NCBI GenBank assembly: GCA_038874135.1
Contig: JAVZCZ010000001.1
Coordinates: 256,001-320,000, forward strand
DNA: 64,000 nucleotides
Direction: 5' to 3'
Source: Candidatus Woesearchaeota archaeon
GTDB lineage: Archaea > Nanobdellota > Nanobdellia > Woesearchaeales > 0-14-0-80-44-23
Numbering within the stretch: the first letter of the stretch is position 1; every line of letters starts with the position of its first letter. Positions 4,192 to 52,539 of this stretch are shown one piece after another. Both the position numbers and the translations under genes were made by a program. A model generated the notes under the pieces. The model had not been told where the DNA came from. It did no database searches and worked only from the letters and a program-made list of their open reading frames with translations.

Positions 4192-6935
4192 ACTCTCACC
4201 TCAACCTTAGCTGGGCCCCACATGGAGGGCACCTTGCTCAGGAGAACAGTATCCACAATTAGGGACTGCTGGTTTATGTTGACATCCAAAATGCCATCTC
4301 TGTTAAGGTCTAATTGAAGGAAGAGGTTATAAGCGGCTTCTTGAATTGCATCTGCTGGATTGTAGGATGCTGTTAGGAAGGTGCAGTTATTGATTCCTGA
4401 ATAGTCGGGAGGTATTTTTATGGTTGAGTTTGTGCCGTCTGCAAATTGTACCAGCCAGTTGCATCCCTCTGCATTTGGCTCAACAGCTGAGTATGTCACA
4501 GAGTTGTTTATGAGTAAGGTGTAGATTGCCCTGTCCTCAGGGCTTCCGCCTGAGGAGGAATTTGCAGAGTAGCCCGTCTTTATTAGGAAAGTGTTGTTGC
4601 CTTCTTGCAATACGCGCGGAGGCACACCTATTAGAAATGGGTCTCCTAAAGCTGCATAGTAGCTTCCAAACTGAGACAGATTAAAGATGTTTATGGAATT
4701 GGCATAGGCTTCTTTGCTCCAATAGTATCCTGAGTATGAAGTCAGTTGAGCATCAACAACCTGCACTCCCGGGGGAATGAATATTGAACCTGAGGTGATA
4801 TAGTTTCCAAACCTTTCTGATTCAATAGTTATAGGTATCTTTCCAAATACTAGGGGCTTGATTGTTGGCGTATAATAAATTTTTATGAAAGAATTAGGGT
4901 AGAGGGTTGAATTTACACCTTGAATGACTACCAGCTGATATTGATAGATGAGAGATTTGTTAACTATCTCATTTGCAAGGTTCTGTACAAACTCAGTAAG
5001 CTGGGTCACATTTGTGCTTGCGTAGAATGTTCCGTTGCCCTTCTCAGCAATCTGACTCATGGTGTAGTTGGCGTTCTGACATGAGCCCATAGGTCCAAGC
5101 CCAATGGCGTGTATCGTTGTCCTATTTATGCCTCCTATTCTTGAAGCTGCATATATGGCATTTTGGATTGGTCCACTGCAGTCGTTTCCAGCGCATTCTG
5201 TTACATAGTCTTCAGAGCAGGCTGCTGGCAGGTACTGTGACAAGTTAGATGTTCCAGTAGTGTTGCACCCTCCGCTCGCGTTCAAGCCGCAGCACTCATT
5301 TGGAATGCCGTCAGTCATTAGGATTACATACTTCTTTCTTGAAGAGTTGCTGTAAGCGTTTATTATTGAATAGGCCAAGTTTAATGCGCAGCAGGTGCAG
5401 GTGTTTCCAGAGGGCTTATTCCAGGGGTAGTAATCCTTATTGTTGACATAGCTTAAAAGCACAGCAGAGTTGTTGCTGTAGTAGTATAATGACTTATCAT
5501 TAAAAGTTAGCAGCCATACTCTGTTCCCAGTCACATTCATTATGGTTTTTATGAATATCTCATTTAGGCATACTGCAACATTTATTCGGCGCACATGAGG
5601 ATTTGTAAAATAGTCCGCTTGGTCGCAGGTCCTTGCATCTCCATTTGAATCGTTATAGCCTATGCTGCCTTTCATGCTTGCTGAAATATCTGTGATTATG
5701 AGCACATCTGCATTTCCTCCAGTTATATTTCCTGTATTATTTAATGCGTAGTGCCCAATTTTAACCGGAATTGTTTTTTCAGAGAGGAAGGAATAGTTTA
5801 AAGCTGCGGCTATGCTTTCATTACTTATGTTTGCAACTATGTTTCCTTCAGCATCTGAGTAGTAAACTGGCTGGCCTGCCAGGTTTACAAAGAGTGGAAG
5901 GCTCGTAGTATAGTTAAGGAAAATTTCAATACCCTTTATCTCGCCAGGCACATATGCTGACGAGTATATATTTATGATCTTGCTTACTCCCGGCAGGTAT
6001 TCAATCTTTGAAGCTGTATTGCTAAAAGGGTCATATTGTGTTTCAGAATAGTTAAGCTCTGAGGTAAGGAGAGAAACTCTGAAAAATCCTCCAGTGATAT
6101 ACGCTGTGCTGTAGTTCTGAAATATGAATTCTATCGTGTTGAGCCCTGGCTTCAGGAATTGTAAGAAGGTCTGGTTTATATAGCACTTGTATGGTATCAG
6201 ATTTCCCCCACCTGAACAGCCTGAAGGATAATCTCCTGAGTAGTTGCCATTTATTTTGAGAGTAAAATTTGATCCGACTTCCATTTCAAAATAAGCTTCA
6301 ATAATTCGCGTATAGTTAGAAGGCAGTACTAAGAATTGGGTTATATTTCCCTGCCCTACGAGCCCTCCAAAATATACATAGACTGGCTGCACCTTGGAGC
6401 TTATCGAGTTGAGTATTGCCCTTGCAGAGTAGCCCTCTTTAGGCTTTTCCTCTTGAATTCCCGAAACGAGCCTGAACGAGGAGCTTAAATAGTCAGCATT
6501 TTTATCTGAGTGTAGAGAAGAGTTGCGCGAGTAGATAAGCTGGCCATTCACATATACTGCAACCCCTAAATTAGTATCTTCAAAGGCGAATTCTACAAAC
6601 CTGCGCGCAACTTCAGAAGCCTCTGCAGTATGGTTGAGTGCCCAAAGCTCTCCAATAACTTCCAATATTGAGCTGTTTAGGCTCGCATTTTTAAGGATTC
6701 CTGATTCTGCAAGTTGTAAGCAGTAGGAATCATTAATCTGGATTGGAGTTATGCTTGAAAGTGCAGAGATTGTGCTTGAGGAGTAATACCAAAGGTTTTG
6801 AGATTTTGATGATGAAGTATAAATCCAGTATGTCGCCAAAAGTCCACTTATTAAAAGAATTGAAGCGAGAAGTGCATCTATTGAGAAAAATATTCCTCTT
6901 CTTATGCGCGCTCCAAGTTTTTTTGTGAATAACAT
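4182..6935 (-). CDS. Large pilin-like adhesin with vWA domain
   Basis: RIRRG|IFFSIDALL class III signal; MIDAS DISAS...T...MTDG; Cys-rich insert; many NxS/T sequons. Confidence 0.8.
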   Translation of the reverse strand: MLFTKKLGARIRRGIFFSIDALLASILLISGLLATYWIYTSSSKSQNLWYYSSSTISALSSITPIQINDSYCLQLAESGILKNASLNSSILEVIGELWALNHTAEASEVARRFVEFAFEDTNLGVAVYVNGQLIYSRNSSLHSDKNADYLSSSFRLVSGIQEEKPKEGYSARAILNSISSKVQPVYVYFGGLVGQGNITQFLVLPSNYTRIIEAYFEMEVGSNFTLKINGNYSGDYPSGCSGGGNLIPYKCYINQTFLQFLKPGLNTIEFIFQNYSTAYITGGFFRVSLLTSELNYSETQYDPFSNTASKIEYLPGVSKIINIYSSAYVPGEIKGIEIFLNYTTSLPLFVNLAGQPVYYSDAEGNIVANISNESIAAALNYSFLSEKTIPVKIGHYALNNTGNITGGNADVLIITDISASMKGSIGYNDSNGDARTCDQADYFTNPHVRRINVAVCLNEIFIKTIMNVTGNRVWLLTFNDKSLYYYSNNSAVLLSYVNNKDYYPWNKPSGNTCTCCALNLAYSIINAYSNSSRKKYVILMTDGIPNECCGLNASGGCNTTGTSNLSQYLPAACSEDYVTECAGNDCSGPIQNAIYAASRIGGINRTTIHAIGLGPMGSCQNANYTMSQIAEKGNGTFYASTNVTQLTEFVQNLANEIVNKSLIYQYQLVVIQGVNSTLYPNSFIKIYYTPTIKPLVFGKIPITIESERFGNYITSGSIFIPPGVQVVDAQLTSYSGYYWSKEAYANSINIFNLSQFGSYYAALGDPFLIGVPPRVLQEGNNTFLIKTGYSANSSSGGSPEDRAIYTLLINNSVTYSAVEPNAEGCNWLVQFADGTNSTIKIPPDYSGINNCTFLTASYNPADAIQEAAYNLFLQLDLNRDGILDVNINQQSLIVDTVLLSKVPSMWGPAKVEVRVWR

Positions 6936-7460: not shown

Positions 7461-7846
7461 ATTGTTCCATTTTGCTTTTGGATATTATTTACTCCGGTTT
7501 TGATATAACCTGAAACTGGGATTATGCTCAGCAATTCAGAGTATTTGTCTGATAAGACGAGCACATAATTGCCTATGATTAGTGCCTGATAGTTCCTTCC
7601 ATAAATATTTTGAGGAATAGTAAAATTCCTTGAATACCCGTCTGAAACTACTGCAGCAGTATCAATCTCATATTGAATCTTGAGAGCTATCTCACGAATC
7701 ATCTTAATCTCATAGTGATCTCTGAGCATCTTCTCCCGCTCGTAGATCATTCCCAGAAAGCTTAGCATTATTAACATTGCAAAAGAGATGAATATTATGA
7801 ATTCTAGGGAGAGCTGACCGCTCTTTTTAATTCTCAACTTTTTCAC
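7433..7846 (-). CDS. Archaeal pilin (QxSxE type)
   Basis: KKSG|QLSLEFIIFISF. Confidence 0.8.
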   Translation of the reverse strand: MKKLRIKKSGQLSLEFIIFISFAMLIMLSFLGMIYEREKMLRDHYEIKMIREIALKIQYEIDTAAVVSDGYSRNFTIPQNIYGRNYQALIIGNYVLVLSDKYSELLSIIPVSGYIKTGVNNIQKQNGTICINMAECP

Positions 7847-7852
7847 CCATAA

Positions 7853-8284
7853 TTAGCTGCTCACTACAACTGAAGAGTTGTAAGCTTCAAATTTTAAATA
7901 CTTAAAGCCTTGCTGCGGATTTACGCTTCCTGTAATGTTTACCCTGCACGGGACGGCAATTTCTGACAATGAACCTGAAATCTCAATTGTAATTACGACT
8001 TCATTGTTACTGAGGTTTATGGCTTTTACATTTTTTGGGATGTAAACCTTAAGCATGCTCTTAGAAGGCGTTCCGGTGTAATACACAATCTCTGCTTCAT
8101 CTACGATCTGGCGTGCAATCCTCTCAGCCTGTCTGATAGCAAAAATATTATTAGTTTCTTGGGTCTGAGTGTAAAAAACAATTATGGTTGGTATTATCAT
8201 TAATGTTGCAAATCCAAGTATTATTGAGAATTCTAAGCTCACCTGAGCTGACCTGCCACCTCTTTTTTTCATATCTATTCCCAC
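7853..8284 (-). CDS. Archaeal pilin (QxSxE type)
   Basis: KKRGGRSA|QVSLEFSIILGF. Confidence 0.8.
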   Translation of the reverse strand: MGIDMKKRGGRSAQVSLEFSIILGFATLMIIPTIIVFYTQTQETNNIFAIRQAERIARQIVDEAEIVYYTGTPSKSMLKVYIPKNVKAINLSNNEVVITIEISGSLSEIAVPCRVNITGSVNPQQGFKYLKFEAYNSSVVVSS

Positions 8285-9057: not shown

Positions 9058-9936
9058 ATGCTCACAATTTTAGAGTTCTGGCTCTACGGAGTGGCAGCTG
9101 CCTGCATGCTATTCAGTTCGATATCTGACATAAAAAAGTTGGAAGTGCCAGACTTTTCAAGCTACTTCATGATATCCTTCGGACTGGGCGCGAGACTAAT
9201 ATACTCTATAATATTCGGAAGTTTTATCCAATTCTTAGATGGAATTCTTGGACTAGCCTTTTTTTCAGGAATAGGCCTCTTGATGTATTATCTTGGGCAG
9301 TGGGGCGGGGGGGATACTAAGATTACAATGGGCTTCGGAGCAATAGCCGGGCTAGGAATTAAGAACAGCTTTTTCCCGATTCTAACCTTTATAGTTATGT
9401 TAGTTAGTGGTGCAGTTCTCGGAATATTTTACAGCCTTTACAACTACCTAAAAAATTTCAAAGAGAGCAATAATCAAATTTTAAATATGCTCAGAAAGAA
9501 TAGACCTTTTGAAATAATAATTTGGGCCACAGCAACAATACTTGCTCTTATTCTACTAATTTTGAAAATTTTTAACCCGGCCGCTCTACTACTCCTAGCA
9601 GTCATAATTATTCTTTATTATCTAGCCATATGGCTTTCAGCAGTTCAAGAAGTTTCAATGATTAAACTGGTAAGTCCAAAAGAGCTTGTAGAAGGAGACT
9701 GGCTAGTGGAAGATATAAAAGTAAAAGGTAAAGTAGTAGTTAAGAAGAGCAGAACTGGCATTGAGAAGAAGGATATTGATAAGATAATCAAGCTTTACAA
9801 GAAGGGAAGCATAAAAAAGGTTAAGGTAAAGTATGGAATGCCGTTCGTCCCAAGCTTCTTCATAGGGCTGCTGCTCTCTCTACTGTTCAAGAATAATATC
9901 CTCGCATTCCTAAGAGCACTTCAAGATCTCTTATAA
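9058..9936 (+). CDS. Prepilin peptidase (A24, EppA/PibD-like)
   Basis: SISDIKKLEVPD and GGGDTK aspartate motifs, LVEGDWL, C-terminal GMPFVPSF; multi-TM. Confidence 0.9.
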   Translation: MLTILEFWLYGVAAACMLFSSISDIKKLEVPDFSSYFMISFGLGARLIYSIIFGSFIQFLDGILGLAFFSGIGLLMYYLGQWGGGDTKITMGFGAIAGLGIKNSFFPILTFIVMLVSGAVLGIFYSLYNYLKNFKESNNQILNMLRKNRPFEIIIWATATILALILLILKIFNPAALLLLAVIIILYYLAIWLSAVQEVSMIKLVSPKELVEGDWLVEDIKVKGKVVVKKSRTGIEKKDIDKIIKLYKKGSIKKVKVKYGMPFVPSFFIGLLLSLLFKNNILAFLRALQDLL

Positions 9937-41206: not shown

Positions 41207-41920
41207 TCACTTTTTAATATATATCTTTACATTCCCAATCTGGTAAAGTGTGCTGTTTGCTATAAAATCTTGAAATAGTTTTTTGCCATTACACTCAAGA
41301 GGGTATTGGGGCATGACTATAAGAAGACGCGGATTCCATGAATTAAGTTCAGCATCATGATTGACTGAGGAAGAGAACATAGGGTCACCTTCATAGCATA
41401 CAAATCTGATAAAGTTGAATGGCTCACGATTGGAGAGTAAGTAAATCTCTCCATTCCAACCATAAACTAAGATTCTATCTGTTGAGTTGGTATGCTCTTT
41501 TATAAAACTGATCACTCTAGTCTGTTCTTCTGCTCCCGAAAAATCGCTGTATGGGAAGTGAAATATCTTATAATTGATGTTATAATCAGGATATTGTTTA
41601 GAAGCGAAGAAAAATGTTGTAAACGATGTGATTAGAAGTAATATTACAAGTACTGATTTTTTATATCCATTCTTTGATTGAATTAAAAACTTCAATCCCC
41701 GTGCAGAGTAAAAGGCTATTGGTGGAAGTACAATTATAAAGTAGTGCCCGAATGAAGGAGGAATAAAACAGATTAACAAACCAAACAGTAACCAAGATAA
41801 AAACAAAAAATTTATTTGTTTAGAATCTTTGCCATTCTGTATGAGAGATAAAATTCCTAAAAGGGATAAGAACAAAAAACATAAAGATTCAAGGATTATC
41901 ATAAAATAACCTTCTGCTAT
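41207..41920 (-). pseudogene. 5'-truncated paralog of the membrane GT at 45877..47361
   Basis: Shares IPPSFGHYF, QYPxxNINxK, DF...Q...F..H; in-frame IAEGYF upstream of ATG 41902 matches paralog LIEGFF, then TAA at 41921-41923; about 260 N-terminal aa missing. Confidence 0.65.
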
Positions 41921-41940: not shown

Positions 41941-43461
41941 ATGAACACCTTCTTTTTTAGTATAATGAAAATTTTGCTCATAAACCCGCTTTTTTATTTT
42001 AATGGACATCTGTTTAAAAAGAATTACAAAGAGATTAATCTGGGATTATTATACTTAGCATCTGTTGCGCAAAAAGAAGGTTTTTCTGTTAAAATAATAG
42101 CTTTAAATAAACTAGAGACTGAGCGCATAATAAAAAGAGAAAAACCAGACATTGTTGGAATAAGTTGTATGATAGGACAACAACGGGCCGGTCTTACTAT
42201 TGCAAAAAAGGTTAAAAAAGTCAATAAGAAGATTATCGTGATAGTGGGAGGGTATTATCCTACTTTCAGGTATAAAAAGATTTTGGAACAAATACCTGAA
42301 GTAGATGTAGTAGTGATAGGTGAAGGTGAAGAATCTTTTAGTGAACTATTAAGATTAATAAATCAGAAAAAGTTTAATTATAACAATCTAAAAAAGATTA
42401 AAGGGATTGCATTTAAAGAGAATAAAAAAATTGTTTTTACAGGAAATCGCGAATTACCGAATTTAGATAAATTGCCTTGGCCTAGTAGGACGCTTTGGAG
42501 AACAGTTAATTTCTTTGCTTCTCGAGGGTGTAGATTTCGATGTAGGTACTGTTCAATAACCAAATTTTATAGAAAAGTTGAAAGGTTTAGATCAGTAAAA
42601 AATGTTATAGAAGAATTAAAGTGGTTAGAAAAGTTGGGGGAAAAAGATGTTAGTATTAATGACGATAATTTCTTAGATAATTTGGATTGGTTTTATAAAT
42701 TTAGGATATTTTATGTAAAGCAAAGATTAAAGATAAGGAGTGGGATAATGAGTAAACTATTAAATGTTTTAAGATTAAAAAAACTTAGGTATCTAAAGGA
42801 GTGTAATATTAATGAAATCAGTATAGGTTTGCAAGGGATAGGAGATGAAGAAAATAAATTTTTTAGAACTGGACACACACTTAAATTATTAGAAGAATTT
42901 AATAAAAAACTAATAAGAGAAAACGTTGAATTTGATGCTATTAGTATATTTCTAATAATTAATAGTGGTGTCAAGCATGAGAACGAGGAATCAATTTTTA
43001 ATAAGGTAAAGAGAGTAGTAGATCTTTTACCTGAAGGGGCTATCCCTAAGAAAAATAAGCTTGCATTGTACCCGGGAACAGATATTGCTGAATATTTCAT
43101 AAAAAAGGGATACTACACAGAGAGTGAAAGCGTATTTAAAGATGATGACTATTTTAATTATTCTTATGCAGACCTCAATGAAAGAAAACTTACTGACTTG
43201 ATAGCTACTGTTGATCAACTATATGAAGAAAGAGCAAAAAGAGAAAGATGGAAAAAGATACCAAAGAGAATAAGTGCAAATTTTCTTAGTACGGTGAATG
43301 CTTACTTGATTATGCTAATGCGCTCTTCTATGAGTTTATGGTTGAAGATCCGTATACTTATGTTCATAATATATATAGTTATTAAAGAGTTTGTTTCGTT
43401 CAGAAATCCAATTAAAAATGATTATAAATTGGGAAGAATGATCAAAATTAAATATTTCTGA
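41941..43461 (+). CDS. Cobalamin-binding radical SAM protein (putative methyltransferase)
   Basis: LGLLYLAS, DIVGIS, IVGGYYPT, GEGE, ASRGCRFRCRYC, DDNF, YPGT; likely start MKILLINP. Confidence 0.88.
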   Translation: MNTFFFSIMKILLINPLFYFNGHLFKKNYKEINLGLLYLASVAQKEGFSVKIIALNKLETERIIKREKPDIVGISCMIGQQRAGLTIAKKVKKVNKKIIVIVGGYYPTFRYKKILEQIPEVDVVVIGEGEESFSELLRLINQKKFNYNNLKKIKGIAFKENKKIVFTGNRELPNLDKLPWPSRTLWRTVNFFASRGCRFRCRYCSITKFYRKVERFRSVKNVIEELKWLEKLGEKDVSINDDNFLDNLDWFYKFRIFYVKQRLKIRSGIMSKLLNVLRLKKLRYLKECNINEISIGLQGIGDEENKFFRTGHTLKLLEEFNKKLIRENVEFDAISIFLIINSGVKHENEESIFNKVKRVVDLLPEGAIPKKNKLALYPGTDIAEYFIKKGYYTESESVFKDDDYFNYSYADLNERKLTDLIATVDQLYEERAKRERWKKIPKRISANFLSTVNAYLIMLMRSSMSLWLKIRILMFIIYIVIKEFVSFRNPIKNDYKLGRMIKIKYF

Positions 43462-43497
43462 AGAAGGGTTAGATGGGACTTGGACTTTAAATAAGTG

Positions 43498-43608
43498 CTA
43501 TCCCAAACTGCTACTACCGGTAACGTGATAATTACACGAGCTAGTTATAGTATCAGTCATTGCAATCTTTCTAAGAGTGGGCTTTTTCCATACAATCTTG
43601 CGTTTCAT
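43498..43608 (-). CDS. Putative RiPP precursor peptide (36 aa), absent from the ORF track
   Basis: Manual translation MKRKIVWKKPTLRKIAMTDTITSSCNYHVTGSSSLG*; WxxPxL leader motif, Ser/Thr/Cys-rich core, co-oriented downstream of the PqqD-rSAM-kinase genes. Confidence 0.8.
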   Translation of the reverse strand: MKRKIVWKKPTLRKIAMTDTITSSCNYHVTGSSSLG

Positions 43609-43630
43609 TTTATAAAAAATAATTATTGTT

Positions 43631-43648
43631 TATTTATAAACTTTTCGC
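43631..43648 (-). promoter_or_regulatory. BRE/TATA promoter of the precursor ORF
   Basis: Minus strand GCGAAAAG-TTTATAAATA ending 22 nt before ATG 43608, typical leaderless spacing. Confidence 0.65.
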
Positions 43649-43703
43649 AATAGCTTGGTTTAAACTTTTATGCTATTTTTAAACATGAAGATAAGCTAAC
43701 CTT

Positions 43704-44555
43704 TTAAAGATTTGATGAATTGTTTGTAACAAAATTTGTTACGAAGGATACGACAGAATTGTCTTTTTTGAATTTAAGAGTATACGCTTTAACTGAGTTA
43801 ACACACGACATCACCAATTTTATGAATTTGGCCTTTGATTCAAAGCTGTAAGGTATTATTGAATTTTTTAATAAATTATTCAAAAAACTATTTATTCTTA
43901 TATCTTGTATACTATTATGATTAGATTTTTTAATGAAGAATATATATGCGAGTTCTCCTTTTTTATTAGAAAAAGATTTCGCACTGCTCTGTGCAGGAGT
44001 TCCATAACAGTAAAATTTTCCATTTTTTTTAATGATTATATTAAGTTCGTCGCTAAAACAATTAAATCCTGATTTTTTAAACAGTTTACATAGAGTACTT
44101 TTTCCTGTTCCGCAGGGACCGACAAATAGAACTACTCTTTTGCGATTGTGCAAATCAAACATAACTCCGGAGGAATGAACTAAAAAGCTATTTTTTTTCG
44201 TCAAATACATCGCCAGTATTCTTTTATTAAAAATGTTTTCAATATCTGTCTTATTAGAAAAGAAGCTAACTTTATTTTTTTCCTTTATTACGCCCCACTC
44301 GCCAGTTTTAGGTTTTATAATTAACTTAGAATTATATTCTAAAAATTTAACTGCAAAGTCTCTGCTCACAAGTTTAGATCCTGGAGGGACACAAAAATAT
44401 CTATAATTCTTCATTAAGAAGGTATAATCCTCTTTTTTATTAGTTCTAAATTGAGCAAATCTATTTAAGTTAAGATTTTTTTCAGAAACTACCTTAACTA
44501 CTACTGGACCTATTTTTATTTTAAATTTTTTCATATAAATCACAGTTAATAACAA
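43704..44555 (-). CDS. HPr-kinase-related P-loop protein (ScmC/HprK-related type)
   Basis: LVHSSGV, LFVGPCGTGKSTL, FSDELNII, YGTP; likely start MKKFK at 44534. Confidence 0.75.
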   Translation of the reverse strand: MLLTVIYMKKFKIKIGPVVVKVVSEKNLNLNRFAQFRTNKKEDYTFLMKNYRYFCVPPGSKLVSRDFAVKFLEYNSKLIIKPKTGEWGVIKEKNKVSFFSNKTDIENIFNKRILAMYLTKKNSFLVHSSGVMFDLHNRKRVVLFVGPCGTGKSTLCKLFKKSGFNCFSDELNIIIKKNGKFYCYGTPAQSSAKSFSNKKGELAYIFFIKKSNHNSIQDIRINSFLNNLLKNSIIPYSFESKAKFIKLVMSCVNSVKAYTLKFKKDNSVVSFVTNFVTNNSSNL

Positions 44556-45547
44556 TTGTTAAAAAAGAGTTTAGCAAGTTTACACAAGCGTGGAATCTTT
44601 GCTGAGTTAGATGATTTTGGATCGAAGGATTTGATTTCTTGTTCTGCAAAGCCAGGACACCAAAAACATATATTACGGTATTTACAACTAGCACACTTTT
44701 TGAATTTCTTTATGTAACTTTGTCTAATGTATTTTAAAGTTTTAAAAGCAATTCTCAGATTCGGAAGAGCTTTTACTCTTTTTTTTCTTAAGAGGAAGCA
44801 GAGCCCCATATTTCCTTTTGAATCAATATGAAAAGAGCGGATACCTGCACTGCAATTAAAAACTTCAGCTGAATGTTTTAATACTTTTAAGTTTATTTTG
44901 TATCTATTACAAAACAAATCAAAAAGATCGTGTGTTGATAAACTAACCTTTCTAGCATTTTTTCCGATGATAATTGGATTAAACTCTATCCTTTTTTTTG
45001 TAAAGTTCAAACTAAGATTATCAAGTTTTTTAAAGTATTTCTTTAACTGATAAAGAGGAAGCGTTCTGAGTTCTAGATTAAATTTCTTTAAGGATTTAAG
45101 ATTATTTAGTACAGTAGTGTATGCTGCTTTTCCAGTTATTTTTCTATACGTAATGTTATCGACTCCGTACAATGTGATTCTTATAAGCATAGGAGGTTTT
45201 TTCTTAAAAGTATCTAATATTTTTTTTGTAACAAAAGACCCATTTGAGTTTATAGTTATTCTATTACCAAACAGGGTGTACGCATAATTATAAATTTCTA
45301 AAAAGTTTGGATGAAGTAGAGGTTCTCCTCCTGTTAGAATTATATTTGTAACACCGAGTCGATAGGCCTGTTTAAGAATCTTTTTAAATTTGATCACGGG
45401 TAATTCTGAGCTAGTAGCTTGTTTAATATTCTTAAAATAGCAATGTTTACATTTGAAGTTGCATTTCTGTGTTATTTCCAAATGAAGAAGATTAGGGGGA
45501 AATTCCTGATTTAAGATAGTTTCAGATTCTTTATCGTAGCTGTACAT
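44546..45547 (-). CDS. Radical SAM/SPASM peptide maturase (PqqE/ScmE-like)
   Basis: CNFKCKHCY, TGGEPLLH, CSAGIRSFHIDSKGNMGLC, CASCKYRNICFWCPG...LC. Confidence 0.88.
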   Translation of the reverse strand: MYSYDKESETILNQEFPPNLLHLEITQKCNFKCKHCYFKNIKQATSSELPVIKFKKILKQAYRLGVTNIILTGGEPLLHPNFLEIYNYAYTLFGNRITINSNGSFVTKKILDTFKKKPPMLIRITLYGVDNITYRKITGKAAYTTVLNNLKSLKKFNLELRTLPLYQLKKYFKKLDNLSLNFTKKRIEFNPIIIGKNARKVSLSTHDLFDLFCNRYKINLKVLKHSAEVFNCSAGIRSFHIDSKGNMGLCFLLRKKRVKALPNLRIAFKTLKYIRQSYIKKFKKCASCKYRNICFWCPGFAEQEIKSFDPKSSNSAKIPRLCKLAKLFFNNCY

Positions 45548-45548
45548 T

Positions 45549-45821
45549 TTAGGATTTTATTAAGATTTTTAAAGACAGTGCTTTTTTAATAAAGTTCATA
45601 AAATCTTTATCTAATTTACTTGCACTAATATCAAATTTCCGGCTTAGAATTTTTTTAGTTTTAGAAATCCCATTTTTTACAACACCTTTTAATATGATCG
45701 ATGCAGTTTTATTTAAGATAAAGTAATTAGGAGAATTTTTTCTAGTTAGTATCAGAAAGTACTGATTATTATTAACTGAATAGAATCTGGCTTTTCCATT
45801 AAAAAAATATTTTTTTGACAT
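45549..45821 (-). CDS. PqqD-family RiPP recognition element (RRE)
   Basis: 90 aa; YFILNKTASIIL...LSRKFDISASKLDKDFMNFIKKALSLKIL matches the LNxT/A...F/Y-D-V...D..F...L pattern; adjacent to the rSAM gene. Confidence 0.8.
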   Translation of the reverse strand: MSKKYFFNGKARFYSVNNNQYFLILTRKNSPNYFILNKTASIILKGVVKNGISKTKKILSRKFDISASKLDKDFMNFIKKALSLKILIKS

Positions 45822-45876
45822 AATTAATATTAAAAAGGCAGTAAGCTTTTTAAATATTGCTATTTTAATTTTTAAA

Positions 45877-47361
45877 GTGAATAAGATAAATAATACAAAA
45901 GAAAGAATTGATAAAGAACTAGTTTTTCTAATAATCTTATCAATTTTTTTAAGATTTATATGGCTATATGCTGCTATAGAACGAGATGAAGGAATTTTTG
46001 GTTATAGTGCATTTAAACTATCGATTAATGAATTAAAAATTGTGGATAATAAAATTCCTATTGTTTATATCATCTATTTATTAATAATGATTATACACAA
46101 ATTACTTTCCTTTAATTTTCCTGTAATTATTAGTGTACGAATTGTTAATAACCTCCTATTCCTAATAGCAGTAGTTTGCTTATATAGGTTTTTTTCAGAG
46201 GAAAAAAGAGAAATTGCCTTTTTTTCTACTATCTTTTTCATAATATTCATGAATCTTCCTGTTTTTGAAGGACAACTTGCTATGACTGAATCATTGGGAA
46301 TGAATTTTTTTGTGTTAGGATTAATATATATGCTTAGATATGCTAAACATTATGAACCTGCTTATTTTAGAATATCATTTTTTTTCTTTTTACTGGCCGC
46401 TTTATTAAAGTACCCTTTTTTGTTCCTTTCAGTTCATACGATTATATTTTTTATAAAAAACAGAACAGGTTTTAAAAAAGTTGCTCTTTTTTTAATTACT
46501 TATTTTATAACAGCGATTCTGATGCTTGGTTTCTATTTTATTGCATTTCCTGAAAATGTTTTATTTTTTATTATTGAAAGTATAAACGTATTAAATGAGG
46601 TCCCTGAAATTTACAGTTTTAGTAGTCTTAAGTTAGTTCTTATCGAGGGTTTCTTTTTTATAATTTTAGTTGTTTTAGGTGTTTTAGAGTATTATAAAGT
46701 AGAGAAAAAGGAGAAAATTTTTTATTTGTTTAAGAATATGTTGCTTATCTCATTGGTACTCTCATTGATTCCTCCTTCGTTTGGTCATTATTTTCTGATA
46801 AATTCAATAGCTGTAGCATTTTTTGCTGGAGTTGGAATACTATCCTTAAAAAGGTTTAGCATTAAATTAGTGAAGTATATCATAATTGTAATTCTTTTCC
46901 TTGCAATTATAATCTCAGTTTATTTTTCAATGTTACAATATCCTAATCTTAACATTAATTTTAAAGGAATTAACGTAGTATATAATGATTTCTTAGATTT
47001 GAAACAGCAGTTAGAAGTTTCAAAATTTTTAGAAAATCATATTAAACAAAACGAGAGCTTTGCCATGTGTGGTTTTGATGGAACTTTAGGTTGGCTGTCA
47101 GAACGGCGTATTTTTTCTGGAGTTAGAAAATTTTGTTATATTCCAAACGGAAAAGAAAATGAAAATAAAGTTTTAAAAATATTAAAAGATAGATACCTTT
47201 CAAGAATTATAATTTATGATGTAGCTAAAATTTTAAGTTGCGAACTACCAGATAATATTAAATATCTGGTTCTATTTACTAATGCATATGATGAAACTTT
47301 GTTTAAATGTACTGGTAAGATTGAGATGAAATATGATAATTTATTGATTTGCAAATGTTAA
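45877..47361 (+). CDS. GT-C (ArnT/GT39-like) membrane glycosyltransferase
   Basis: ERDEG after TM1, DNKIP, AMTE, multi-TM, FGHYF. Confidence 0.8.
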   Translation: MNKINNTKERIDKELVFLIILSIFLRFIWLYAAIERDEGIFGYSAFKLSINELKIVDNKIPIVYIIYLLIMIIHKLLSFNFPVIISVRIVNNLLFLIAVVCLYRFFSEEKREIAFFSTIFFIIFMNLPVFEGQLAMTESLGMNFFVLGLIYMLRYAKHYEPAYFRISFFFFLLAALLKYPFLFLSVHTIIFFIKNRTGFKKVALFLITYFITAILMLGFYFIAFPENVLFFIIESINVLNEVPEIYSFSSLKLVLIEGFFFIILVVLGVLEYYKVEKKEKIFYLFKNMLLISLVLSLIPPSFGHYFLINSIAVAFFAGVGILSLKRFSIKLVKYIIIVILFLAIIISVYFSMLQYPNLNINFKGINVVYNDFLDLKQQLEVSKFLENHIKQNESFAMCGFDGTLGWLSERRIFSGVRKFCYIPNGKENENKVLKILKDRYLSRIIIYDVAKILSCELPDNIKYLVLFTNAYDETLFKCTGKIEMKYDNLLICKC

Positions 47362-48515
47362 GTGACAAAATGATAGTAAAGAATTACAGACGGCTAAGAT
47401 TCATCATTGTGTTACTTTTTATTGAAATGATTATCATATTAATGTGGTTATCACATTATGAGATTGAGAGATATCAACAGCAACAGATTAATAAGTTGAA
47501 TGAAAAGATTGAAAAATTACTCGAGTATTCAAAGCATTTAAATAACAACTGTACAGTTATTGTTTATGAAGATAACAGTTTAATATGTGAAAAAACTGCT
47601 GGGCCATACACAATTTATGATTACATAAAATTATACGAATTCACAGGAGAACTGGATTTTTTTAATACTGCTAAAAGATTAAGTGCTTGCTTGGAAAATT
47701 CAAATTTTTCATATATTAAAGATAGATGTGATTTAAATCTGTGGGATGGCAAAAATTATAAAATTGCCTGGATGTTTTCTGAATATTATTATTATAATCA
47801 TTTGAACAAATCGGCAGGAGACATTTATAAAAAAATGTTAGAAGATTTAAAAATGAATATTTCTAATAACCAGAATATATCTGAAAATTTAATATTAACC
47901 CAGTTTAAAATAAGGGAGCTTAGAGCATTAGAACAACAAGCCATTAATAAATGTATTATAAACAAAGAATGCAATATAACCGAGGAATATAAAAAGATAA
48001 TTCAAGCATATCTAGAGATTGAAAGTATTTCTGAAACAAATTTTTTTTACATAAACCCTCAATGGTTACAAGGAGCATGTTCTGCATTAAAAGGATTTAA
48101 AATGTATGGAGACCCTAAAAATTTTGAAACAAATATTATAATAAAAGAAATTGAAATTAGAGTATTTCACAGAATCAGTAGACTTTTAAGTGATCAAAGA
48201 ATAGAAGGATATTTTAATGAAAAATTTTTTTCAAAAAAAGATGATGTAGATAGTACAATCTATACATACAAAGCAGTATTAGCGTTAGACGCCTGTCTTG
48301 ATGCAAAATTAGCACCTTACAGCTTAAATGCAATAATTAATCAAAGTATAAAAAAAGGTTTAATCTATTTACTAAATCAACAGGATGAAAAAGGAGGAAT
48401 AATTGAAAGATATAAAGTTCCACATAAAACAGAAAGTTTAAACGATGAGATCCTTGTACTCGCTATAAAATATTTTGGTCTTCCCTACAAAAAAATAAAT
48501 GAAAAAATCAAGTAA
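47349..48515 (+). CDS. Membrane-anchored helical-repeat (alpha/alpha toroid-like) hypothetical protein
   Basis: N-terminal TM; LYEFTGELDFFNTAKR and KKGLIYLLNQQDEKGG resemble toroid/QW-type repeats. Confidence 0.55.
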   Translation: MQMLSDKMIVKNYRRLRFIIVLLFIEMIIILMWLSHYEIERYQQQQINKLNEKIEKLLEYSKHLNNNCTVIVYEDNSLICEKTAGPYTIYDYIKLYEFTGELDFFNTAKRLSACLENSNFSYIKDRCDLNLWDGKNYKIAWMFSEYYYYNHLNKSAGDIYKKMLEDLKMNISNNQNISENLILTQFKIRELRALEQQAINKCIINKECNITEEYKKIIQAYLEIESISETNFFYINPQWLQGACSALKGFKMYGDPKNFETNIIIKEIEIRVFHRISRLLSDQRIEGYFNEKFFSKKDDVDSTIYTYKAVLALDACLDAKLAPYSLNAIINQSIKKGLIYLLNQQDEKGGIIERYKVPHKTESLNDEILVLAIKYFGLPYKKINEKIK

Positions 48516-48591: not shown

Positions 48592-50397
48592 ATGAAATTT
48601 AAAAGATCTCCAAAAGTATATCAAAATTATAAGTGTGACAATCCTAAGAATACAATAAGAAAAATTGATAGTGGCTTTAGAAGAGTTGGTCTTGCGGTAG
48701 TGTACAGATGTAAAGAAATTAAATTAAAAAATTTAAATTATTTCACGGGTAGTGTGAGGCTTCCTTACTTAAATCTTACAAGTAATGGGAAAGGCTGGAA
48801 TTATTATTTAAGCAAAGCCAGTGCATGTGGAGAAGCTGTTGAACGATTTTCAGCTGAGATGCATTCTCCTGCATCTTATCTATTTATGAAGAGTATTATA
48901 AAAAATTTCTGGGCAGATGATATTAAATATTATTCTTCTTTTTATTTTAAATCTTTTACAAAAAATAAAGGGAATAGTAATAAAGCAAGTTATACAAATG
49001 ATAAAGTCACTAATAATTGGTTGAGAGAAATTAAAAAACAGATGAACAGTGTGAGAAGGAATAGTAAAAATGTTTATGCATTCTCTCTAATTCATAAAAA
49101 ATATATAAGAATTCCTGCAACAAAGGTTAAATTATTATCATTTTCGAATGGGCTAGCTGCTGGCAATACCCTAGAAGAAGCAATTGTTCAGGGAGCTAAT
49201 GAAATTTTTGAAAGATATATTTTAGCAAGAGTTATTAATAATAAAAAGAAGATATGGCCAACGATTGATAAAACCAGTATAAAAAGTAAGAGGATAATTA
49301 ATTTTATTAAGTTATTTGAAAGTAACAATTTTGACATAATTTTAAAAGATTTTTCATTGAATGGCGAATTTCCCTGTTATGGTGTATTATTTGTTAATAA
49401 CAATTTAAAGAATACAAAAAATAAAATAAAAAAAAGGTATTTTTTTAGAAGAGTAAGAATTGCATCAGATTTTAATCCTGAGATTGCTATTCTAAGATGC
49501 TTTATGGAAGAATTACAAGGTAAAGATTTAAAAGATCTAAAAAAACATAAATATTTAGACTCAATTTGGGAGTTGGGCCTAAAGGAAAATTTAAAGTTTG
49601 TATTCAATACGGATCTATCAAACTTAAGATATTACCATTATCCTAAGAGTTTAAGACATCTAGAAGAAGGTAAAATAGAAAAGTTTGACCATTTAAAAAA
49701 TAAGAAATTTAGTGATTTCTATGATGAACTAGAAGAAATTAAAAAAATAATAGAAAAACAGAAAAGAGATATCTTAATTATCGATTATACCCATCCGAAA
49801 ATAAGGTTTCCTGTTGTGCGAGTAATAATTCCAGGCATGTCAGATATGGTAAATTTGTTTTCATCAATTAGACTAACAAAAGCATCAGATGAAGAGATAT
49901 ATTCTCTAATGTATCCTTATTTTAAGTATATGAAAAGATTTATTTTAAATAATATGTGGGTCAAATCACAAGAAGGAGTTAAAGAGTTTGTTGAAGCGCT
50001 CAGATCATATATTTCAAATTATCCGCTTATGGAAGAGATTCCAACTCCGGTTTTCCCATTAAAAGAAAATTCAGTTTATATGCTAATGCTATTTTCCTAT
50101 TTGCGAATAAGAAAGTATGAATCAGCTCTTAATTATCTAAAAACAATAATAAAAATTTATCCAAAAAACAAAAAACTTTTTGATAAACTGTACCGATATT
50201 TAAAAAGTGTAAAAAAAGATAATATAAACTATGAGAGAATTAAAGTAATGGTTAAAGATCTACCATTTCAGGAAAAAGTTATACTTTTAGAACCACATAG
50301 AAACCCATTAGACCCAAATTTTTTCCTAAGTAAAGAAAATGAATTTTTTACTAAATTAGTTTTGATTAGAGCAATGAAATCTTTTGAGGGGTCATAA
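48592..50397 (+). CDS. YcaO-family protein with helical (TPR-like) C-terminal extension
   Basis: NGKG...ASACGEAVERF, SNGLAAGNTLEEAIVQGANEIFER, RCFMEELQG, PVVRVIIPGM. Confidence 0.9.
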   Translation: MKFKRSPKVYQNYKCDNPKNTIRKIDSGFRRVGLAVVYRCKEIKLKNLNYFTGSVRLPYLNLTSNGKGWNYYLSKASACGEAVERFSAEMHSPASYLFMKSIIKNFWADDIKYYSSFYFKSFTKNKGNSNKASYTNDKVTNNWLREIKKQMNSVRRNSKNVYAFSLIHKKYIRIPATKVKLLSFSNGLAAGNTLEEAIVQGANEIFERYILARVINNKKKIWPTIDKTSIKSKRIINFIKLFESNNFDIILKDFSLNGEFPCYGVLFVNNNLKNTKNKIKKRYFFRRVRIASDFNPEIAILRCFMEELQGKDLKDLKKHKYLDSIWELGLKENLKFVFNTDLSNLRYYHYPKSLRHLEEGKIEKFDHLKNKKFSDFYDELEEIKKIIEKQKRDILIIDYTHPKIRFPVVRVIIPGMSDMVNLFSSIRLTKASDEEIYSLMYPYFKYMKRFILNNMWVKSQEGVKEFVEALRSYISNYPLMEEIPTPVFPLKENSVYMLMLFSYLRIRKYESALNYLKTIIKIYPKNKKLFDKLYRYLKSVKKDNINYERIKVMVKDLPFQEKVILLEPHRNPLDPNFFLSKENEFFTKLVLIRAMKSFEGS

Positions 50398-52125: not shown

Positions 52126-52539
52126 ATGAATGGGTTTGAGATTTTTTTAGTAAAAGGTAAGAGTATGCGTCCCTTATTAAGAGAGGGTGATAGTTGTATT
52201 GTTGTGAAAGATAAGAATTATGGTCTTTTTGATGTGGTGGCATTTCGGAGGAAAGGAAAGGTTATTATTCACAGAATTGTAAAATTTCGCAGGGACGGCA
52301 GGGTTACTACTCACGGGGATAATTCAGCAAGTTTTTTTAGAGCACTTGCCTCTTTTGAAGTTATTAGAAGGAAGGATATTATTGGGAGAGTTGTCTGCAT
52401 TGTAAGGTCTAGAAGGAAGGTTGAAGGGTTTCGTTTGAAGCTTCTTTCGTTTTTCTCACTTGTTTTGGGAATTTTTAGGATGCTTCCGTTTCTTTTTAAA
52501 AGGTATGTTTTTGGCTTTAAGCCTCGTAAGGCTCTTTAA
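52126..52539 (+). CDS. S24/S26-family peptidase lacking an N-terminal anchor
   Basis: VKGKSMRPLLREGD, IIHRIV, HGDN, IIGRV. Confidence 0.85.
   Translation: MNGFEIFLVKGKSMRPLLREGDSCIVVKDKNYGLFDVVAFRRKGKVIIHRIVKFRRDGRVTTHGDNSASFFRALASFEVIRRKDIIGRVVCIVRSRRKVEGFRLKLLSFFSLVLGIFRMLPFLFKRYVFGFKPRKAL

Follow-up and report, generated by a model that had tools for sequence, protein, structure and literature searches.

In a 64,000-nucleotide stretch of a Candidatus Woesearchaeota genome (assembly GCA_038874135.1, contig JAVZCZ010000001.1, positions 256,001 to 320,000; hereafter the window), we found a 36-codon open reading frame (ORF). Judged from the sequence and its surroundings, this is very probably a genuine gene, whose peptide product is the substrate of a small gene set for peptide modification. 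The ORF lies at 43498–43608 on the minus strand. It is co-directional with a three-gene operon for a discrete recognition element (RRE) of RiPPs (peptides synthesized ribosomally and modified post-translationally), a radical SAM enzyme and an HprK-like protein. The ORF likely encodes the precursor (A gene) for a kinase/RRE-type system that depends on the RRE to modify the peptide; this system would be related to the linear polyphosphorylated peptide (LPP) family, but in an archaeon and with an additional radical SAM/SPASM enzyme. The host genome is a single contig of 909,956 bp.

Translation of 43495–43608 on the minus strand gave, from the ATG to the stop codon, the peptide MKRKIVWKKPTLRKIAMTDTITSSCNYHVTGSSSLG, exactly as quoted in an earlier note on this DNA. 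The leader motif, W7-K-K-P10-T-L12, stands behind a basic N-terminus, and the peptide ends with Leu-Gly. A recount agreed with the note that 10 of the 19 C-terminal residues are Ser, Thr or Cys (T18, T20, T22, S23, S24, C25, T30, S32, S33 and S34). The ORF is placed in a gap of 242 nt, between the stop of the HprK-like gene at 43704 and the stop of a convergent B12-radical SAM gene at 43461. The note had seen in it a precursor-type peptide with a lasso/PqqA-type [Y/W]xxPxL leader, and this was borne out by its position next to genes for a PqqD-type RRE, a radical SAM/SPASM enzyme and an HprK-like kinase. The precursor gene is absent from the annotation of all four assemblies containing the locus. 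Within the 242-nt gap we found no Rfam family match and no bacterial-type terminator, and the antisense ORF at 43495–43653(+) had nothing notable.

To find related loci, we used as anchor the P-loop (kinase-like) protein, the most specific gene of the set, and we mined genomes of the same phylum and metagenome contigs. Sixty relatives first led to two loci and a word-index search to one more. An exhaustive HMMER search with a four-sequence kinase profile put the kinase family at no fewer than 12,373 clusters at 50% identity (12,373 at E ≤ 0.001; 4,809 at E ≤ 1e-10). Conservation in related loci had been named beforehand as a test able to refute the proposal, and the outcome was in its favor. 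All 13 loci with enough flanking DNA (the window, L006, L007, L035, L036, L037, L039, L042, L043, L044, L045, L052 and L054) had a small ORF beside the pair of HprK/ScmC-like kinase and PqqD-type RRE. Three of the related peptides, one of them in L054, were already present as gene calls in the source annotations. No peptide was found in L005, a syntenic cluster of the same family whose contig starts inside a radical SAM gene, nor was there a candidate in L053, a contig of only 4.4 kb. The same-genus genome G001 lacked the kinase. Genome G277, unpublished, yielded weak matches only, and these were left out of all conclusions.

Each of the 13 peptides had a basic N-terminus followed by [Y/W]xxPx[I/L/M/V]. 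When the peptides were aligned on the Pro (10–12 related peptides beside that of the window), this residue was invariant, and the aromatic position was Tyr in 11 and Trp in two, those of the window and L054. Hydrophobic residues were found at positions +2, +5, +8 and +11 from the Pro (P+2 to P+11), and the tail was short and variable. Twelve of the 13 peptides had a Cys, Thr or Ser at P+15 to P+17, which is C25 in the window. This residue was Cys in only four peptides and Thr or Ser in the others, and the presence of Cys did not track that of a SPASM enzyme. In the C-terminal part neither an aromatic residue nor the Ser run was conserved. The NCBIfam lasso leader and precursor models were matched by 3 of 11 peptides.

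Variant forms were also seen among these loci. L039 encoded a 69-aa precursor form (9191–9400(−)) with a tail of TTSPG-like Ser/Thr/Pro/Gly repeats, adjoining a glycosyltransferase-sulfotransferase fusion and an NTP_transf_5 gene, and it looks like a heavily O-modified variant. In L054 (5001–6335(+)), the kinase-like domain was fused to Peptidase_M23 (444 aa, 10 cluster members), and a W-type precursor of 44 aa and a PqqD protein were encoded ahead of the fusion gene. An IS200-type transposase (6189–6620(+)) was located in L036 directly beside the PqqD/NTP_transf_5/kinase cluster, which fits a patchy distribution and mobility.

The earlier note had also placed a BRE (transcription factor B recognition element) and a TATA box 22 nt upstream of the ORF, and had suggested separate leaderless transcription. 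Read on the minus strand, GCGAAAAG (43648–43641) and TTTATAAATA (43640–43631) were followed by 22 nt (43630–43609) and the ATG at 43608, as described there. We delimited the archaeal promoter of the peptide gene as 43633–43648(−), with the BRE-like GCGAAAAG and the TATA box TTTATAAA (43640–43633). The upstream region thus reads CGAAAAG-TTTATAAA, 24 nt, ATG. The octamer TTTAWAWA is rare, with 885 sites on both strands of the genome, and genome-wide its end peaks sharply at 21–25 nt before the ATGs of long ORFs. The 68 sites preceding ORFs of at least 120 aa had a purine-rich RRAAA at −7 to −3. The genome promoter consensus is RRAAAnn-TTTAWAWA, 21–25 nt, ATG, and the element of the peptide gene fits it. 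The BRE and TATA composite occurred at 135 genome sites, 39 of them with an ATG 21–25 nt downstream, and 28 of these 39 opened ORFs of at least 100 aa. Among the 13 peptide genes, the strict TATA octamer was found 22–25 nt before the ATG in six and at 33–37 nt in three more. The TATA spacing of the peptide gene matches the genome consensus and so implies a leaderless mRNA. A separate promoter and a leaderless transcript are therefore well supported in silico, in line with the note, the element being the BRE/TATA consensus of this genome at the spacing seen before the 68 long ORFs. By the same spacing rule, the enzyme operon would have its own promoter, with the TATA box TTTAAAAA at 45847–45854(−), 25 nt before the ATG of the RRE gene.

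The occurrence of RRAAAnn-TTTAWAWA at 68 ORFs of at least 120 aa suggests many leaderless mRNAs in this genome. The same signal preceded some small ORFs: one of 53 aa with a zinc-ribbon-like CxxC...CxxC pattern (G000 208924(+)), one of 60 aa (458921(−)), and one of 84 aa, Cys-rich and with a hydrophobic N-terminus (626899(−)).

A 36-codon ORF could also arise by chance and be untranslated, the gap then carrying only promoter and terminator signals of the neighboring genes. In this AT-rich genome short ORFs abound (7,742 ATG ORFs of 20–80 aa). Those with a loose motif, [YWF]xxPx[LIVM] 4–12 residues from the start, numbered 90 on both strands of the 910-kb genome, corresponding to 0.024 expected in the 242-nt gap. 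When a Pro-anchored leader profile was made from the 12 remaining peptides (leave-one-out), the window peptide ranked first of 33,745 six-frame segments. Its score was 11.9 bits, with a genome-wide E value of 0.28, which is weak alone and speaks for a chance ORF. The case for a precursor is the profile rank plus the position, not the score alone. With a whole-length leave-one-out profile the window peptide was 10th of 33,745 (E 13), because the variable tail and the gaps diluted the profile. No match to the leader profile was obtained in L005, in three control loci with weak P-loop matches only, or around the distant nucleotidyltransferase gene described below. The genome contains exactly one RRE, one kinase-like gene and one such peptide, and the top-ranked segment adjoins them. 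The first rank among 33,745 segments, the location exactly beside the only kinase/RRE operon and the same type of ORF in 12 other loci argue together that this is not a chance ORF. In addition, the ORF has a canonical promoter with leaderless spacing, and this promoter could serve no other gene on the same strand because the next downstream gene is convergent. We thus consider a chance ORF very improbable.

The operon genes abut or overlap. The first gene (45549–45821(−)) encodes a discrete RRE of 90 aa, of the PqqD family and lasso-B1 type, with a Pfam PqqD match of 0.0019 that is below the cut-off. A profile of the window RRE and nine orthologues matched best the structures of TbiB1 (5v1u, 1.5e-15) and PbaB1 (9x90 chain B, 4e-13), followed by LppB (9x8z chain B, 3e-9) and TfuB1 (2e-7), with PqqD at only 8e-5. 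The entries 9x90 and 9x8z are complexes of PbaB1 and LppB with their leaders (PMC13381572). Complex prediction for the RRE and the window peptide gave a score of 0.59, and a single control with an unrelated 36-residue partner gave 0.53.

The second gene (44546–45547(−)) encodes a radical SAM enzyme of 333 aa with a C-terminal Cys pattern of SPASM type. The Pfam Radical_SAM domain (1.6e-22) starts at residue 24, which leaves no room for an RRE of its own. By eye, the Cys pattern was Cx12Gx4C...Cx2Cx5Cx2C...C; Pfam SPASM itself was not reported. Matches to NCBIfam models (WgkB, ScmE/F, AlbA, PapB and PqqE) were partial, and these and the matches to PDB structures (SkfB and PqqE) covered the SAM core only. 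Nine of the 13 loci had radical SAM genes beside the kinase/RRE pair, and L042 shared the kinase-radical SAM-RRE arrangement of the window.

The third gene (43704–44555(−)) encodes an HprK/ScmC-like protein with a P-loop kinase fold (NCBIfam HprK_rel_A, 1e-6). It has 283 aa from the TTG at 44555, which gives a 10-nt overlap with the radical SAM gene, or 276 aa from the ATG at 44534, the form found in databases. Among 64 members of the family, 47 matched ScmC, 41 HprK-related kinase A and 36 HprK-related kinase B, all below the cut-offs. A profile search against PDB sequences returned generic P-loop matches only. The AlphaFold2 model (pLDDT 89.9) had as top Foldseek matches PEP carboxykinases (PEPCK) and the HPr kinase/phosphatase 1knx. 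H120, G144 and K145 are invariant in the family, and T147 and D162 nearly so. Based on the model, the fold is PEPCK/HprK-like and the protein a predicted kinase.

Several neighboring genes could belong to the same pathway. The convergent gene at 41941–43461(+) encodes a B12-binding radical SAM enzyme (Pfam B12-binding 1e-23, plus Radical_SAM), possibly a tailoring enzyme; B12-radical SAM genes were also present in L005, L006, L007, L042, L044 and L054. At 52126–52539(+), a 137-aa SpI-like (S24/S26) peptidase was found (Pfam Peptidase_S24 1.9e-6, S26 9e-4), which is a candidate leader peptidase and analogue of LppS. It has SM-P, HRIV and GDN motifs and a hydrophobic C-terminal tail, and was retrieved with the cluster-linked peptidase of L006 at E 2e-7. 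S24/S26 peptidase homologues were located inside or beside the clusters of L005, L006, L035, L037, L044 and L052, and the L005 counterpart (7499–7924) is in the same position, after rps7 and a family 2 glycosyltransferase (GT2) gene. A second, weaker S26-like ORF, distinct from this peptidase, is present at G000 98170–98421.

NTP_transf_5 genes were found in L006, L007, L035, L036, L037, L039, L042, L044, L045, L052 and L054. The sole such gene of the host genome (G000:C1:48300-49343; L048 8301–9344) is far from the cluster; its neighbors are three unknown ORFs (84, 496 and 84 aa) and a gene resembling SbcC/Rad50. The 388-aa ORF at 47349–48515 of the window was rejected as an NTP_transf_5 relative. 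No exporter was seen between 41 and 52.5 kb of the window. Divergent from the operon, a gene at 45877–47361(+) encodes a membrane glycosyltransferase of the PMT_2 type (Pfam 8.7e-5, below the cut-off) with a putative role in the pathway. Because PMT_2 genes recur beside the kinase gene in five related loci (L007, L042, L044, L045 and L054), they may be part of the pathway and not of general glycan synthesis. Two PMT_2-like membrane protein genes flank the window cluster, this one and a much shorter one at 41207–41902(−). More generally, the related clusters were surrounded by glycosyltransferase and PMT_2 genes.

By comparison of sequences and gene content, the LPP family is the closest known system to the window cluster. 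LPP clusters (lppA-K-B-S-D-N) have been described from Bacillota, embedded in polysaccharide loci (Popov et al., Nat Commun 2026, PMC13381572). The LPP precursor carries a YxxPxVLxHQxIxFETxxS motif, and the HprK-like LppK polyphosphorylates Ser3 of the core (PMC13381572). LppB is a discrete RRE, LppN an NTP transferase, and the clusters also have an MsbA-like exporter (PMC13381572). The archaeal-type signal peptidase LppS cuts after T-1 (P+12), and the RRE is needed for this step (PMC13381572). Like LPP clusters, the window cluster has a small precursor in which an N-terminal [Y/W]xxPx[V/L/I] motif is followed by a variable C-terminus, a discrete RRE of the lasso-B1 type (LppB at 3e-9), an HprK-like kinase and no lasso cyclase. 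Further common features are glycosyltransferase-rich surroundings and, in the related archaeal loci, NTP_transf_5 and the ABC exporter of L052; an archaeal-type SpI-like peptidase, with the window candidate 8.5 kb off, may be another. The register is also similar, with the small T22 at P+12 and a nucleophile at P+15, as T-1 and S3 in LppA.

The differences from LPP are also clear. The host is an archaeon of DPANN type and not a member of Bacillota, to which LPPs and paeninodins were stated to be restricted (PMC13381572). The leader has a Trp in place of the LPP-typical Tyr and lacks the extended VLxHQxIxFET. Discrete RREs of lasso and LPP systems bind [Y/W]xxPx[L/V/I/F/A], in which Y/W and P are essential and the choice of W or Y steers specificity (PMC13381572). 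With 36 aa the window precursor is much shorter (35–200 aa in LPP, with a core of 45 residues in the LppA studied), and its P+15 is a Cys, not a Ser. There is a radical SAM/SPASM gene between the RRE and kinase genes, a B12-radical SAM gene adjoins, and the locus has no nucleotidyltransferase and no identified exporter. We found no description of an archaeal or radical SAM-bearing form of the kinase/RRE cluster in the literature, and the RRE-Finder paper makes no mention of kinases or archaea.

The role of the radical SAM enzymes is the point on which a pure LPP-type pathway differs from our reading. In such a pathway the peptide would be a real precursor, but handled by the RRE, the kinase and the SpI-like peptidase alone. 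The radical SAM/SPASM enzyme, the B12-radical SAM enzyme and the YcaO protein would serve other substrates, e.g., in glycan or cofactor chemistry of this sugar-rich locus. L036, L039 and L052 look like plain LPP-type sets, with peptide, kinase, RRE and nucleotidyltransferase and no radical SAM gene, and the radical SAM partners are poorly conserved between loci. YcaO (48592–50397) was not a conserved neighbor: it was absent from all gene tables read for the related loci. Against this pathway, the RRE and kinase genes flank the window radical SAM gene, the frames abutting or overlapping, and the radical SAM enzyme has no RRE domain of its own. The gene order recurs in L042, and most of the other loci, like the window, add a radical SAM/SPASM gene and often a B12-radical SAM gene. 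We consider a pure LPP-type pathway unlikely, and a precursor modified also by the radical SAM/SPASM enzyme the better reading.

Beside the E value of the leader profile, several observations weigh against our reading. The action of the radical SAM enzyme on the window peptide is inferred from the operon structure only. Across the related loci these enzymes are only ~28% identical over the core, and three loci have none, so that the radical SAM step is not family-wide. The window RRE and kinase are below the curated cut-offs of PqqD, ScmC and HprK_rel_A. The candidate peptidase is 8.5 kb from the operon, past unrelated YcaO, rps7 and GT2 genes, and the NTP_transf_5 gene is 250 kb from the cluster. 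Finally, L057, L058 and L059 are identical to the window over ~4 kb, which left no sequence-divergent close orthologue from which to gauge purifying selection.

Kinase-bearing lasso clusters are a second group for comparison, e.g., paeninodin with PadeK and pseudomycoidin with a kinase and a nucleotidyltransferase (PMC8498205). Like the window cluster they have an RRE of B1 type together with an HprK-like kinase, whose target is the linear precursor, and paeninodin-type precursors have a WxxPxL leader (PMC13381572). The window cluster differs by having neither cyclase nor B2 protease and by a peptide that ends with Leu-Gly, not Ser. The lasso-type leader motif and RRE, and the existence of lasso clusters with kinases (PMC8498205), would agree with a lasso precursor whose cyclase and B2 protease are encoded elsewhere or were not recognized. 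Against it, the genome had no lasso B2 (Transglut_core3) match over the cut-off, and its sole gene with an Asn_synthase domain is 303 aa long and 180 kb away. Also, no cyclase was listed and no B2 protease found in the related loci with gene tables read. A lasso precursor is therefore extremely unlikely.

The SynChlorMet cassette (ScmC, ScmD = PqqD, ScmE/ScmF; TIGR04249-04251, PF27840) has the same three enzyme types in one operon. The source annotation labels kinase homologues PF27840 ScmC, and ScmF/ScmE were partially matched by the radical SAM enzyme. However, these radical SAM matches reached 58–63 bits, compared to ScmE/ScmF cut-offs of 400, the window kinase had no ScmC match at E ≤ 0.01, and there is one radical SAM/SPASM gene, not two. 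Sactipeptide and ranthipeptide precursors are a further comparison; the window peptide has a single Cys (C25), and the radical SAM enzyme matched AlbA, PapB and SkfB over the SAM core only.

Similarities to PqqA/PqqD/PqqE were a short peptide with W-x-K-P near the N-terminus, a chaperone of PqqD fold and a SPASM radical SAM enzyme that lacks an RRE. By contrast, the window RRE is nearer to lasso B1, the C-terminus is variable, a kinase is present, and PqqB/C genes are not. In a cofactor pathway of the PqqA/MftA type, C-terminal residues of the peptide would be excised and converted to a small redox cofactor by the radical SAM/SPASM enzyme and the PqqD chaperone. The PqqD-family protein, the PqqE-like radical SAM/SPASM enzyme and the very short peptides would suit this, as would the WKKP start of the window peptide, which we take to resemble PqqA-type leaders. 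However, the C-terminal parts are hypervariable between loci, unlike those of cofactor precursors, and the RRE profile is nearer to lasso B1/LPP (1.5e-15 to 3e-9) than to PqqD (8e-5). The constant partner is a kinase, and not genes of the PqqB/C or MftB-F type. The chance that the peptide is a cofactor precursor is accordingly minimal.

For an RRE-dependent precursor of the kinase/RRE type, the LPP register points to possible sites of modification. HprK-like kinases phosphorylate precursor peptides (PMC8498205; PMC13381572). In LppA, T-1 is at P+12 and the phosphorylated S3 at P+15 (PMC13381572); in the window peptide, T22 and C25 occupy these positions, on either side of S23 and S24. The analogous leader would comprise residues 1–22, followed by the 14-residue core SSCNYHVTGSSSLG, and the kinase site would be around S23/S24/C25. 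Among candidates for a modification site shared across the family, the alignment most favors the Cys/Thr/Ser at P+15 to P+17, which either the kinase or the radical SAM enzyme may use. The earlier note had instead proposed the terminal Ser residues as kinase targets, which the comparison does not support. The Ser run is not conserved in the 13 peptides and the window peptide ends with Gly, and lasso-type kinases require a C-terminal Ser (PMC8498205). The LPP kinase uses Ser3 of the core, 15 residues past the motif Pro (PMC13381572). For the crosslink by the radical SAM enzyme the note had proposed Cys or Tyr/His; in the C-terminal part no aromatic residue is conserved, and C25 is the window residue at the conserved Cys/Thr/Ser position.

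We propose that the peptide gene's own BRE/TATA promoter gives rise to a leaderless mRNA, with read-through from the enzyme operon possible too. The 90-aa RRE of lasso-B1 type would bind the leader via W7, P10 and L12, by knobs-into-holes contacts and beta-strand addition. The radical SAM/SPASM enzyme, having no RRE of its own, may then act on C25 or a neighboring residue, and the HprK-like kinase may phosphorylate Ser/Thr near positions 23–24 or 30. The likeliest leader peptidase is the SpI-like peptidase at 52126–52539, which by the LPP register would cut after T22.

Gene callers routinely overlook the substrate genes of RiPP pathways, and without the substrate the enzymes cannot be studied. 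For this three-gene archaeal operon, a defined 36-residue substrate is now proposed, which can be tested by simple co-expression. The kinase/RRE logic reported in 2026 for LPP of Bacillota is thus also found in archaea, DPANN and others, where radical SAM enzymes are often added to it. The leader signature, i.e., a basic N-terminus, [Y/W]xxPx[ILMV], hydrophobic residues at P+5, P+8 and P+11, and a nucleophile at P+15 to P+17, is reusable, and could find precursors across the kinase family of at least 12,373 clusters. It is conceivable, though doubtful, that this 0.9-Mb DPANN genome keeps a dedicated pathway in which a core of ~14 residues is crosslinked by the radical SAM/SPASM enzyme (at the conserved Cys/Thr), phosphorylated, and perhaps also methylated or glycosylated, giving a radical-SAM-crosslinked phosphopeptide, a RiPP chemotype unseen before. 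If so, the product could act at the cell surface, at the interface between symbiont and host, rather than as a classical antibiotic, because the clusters are always found in surface-glycan loci.

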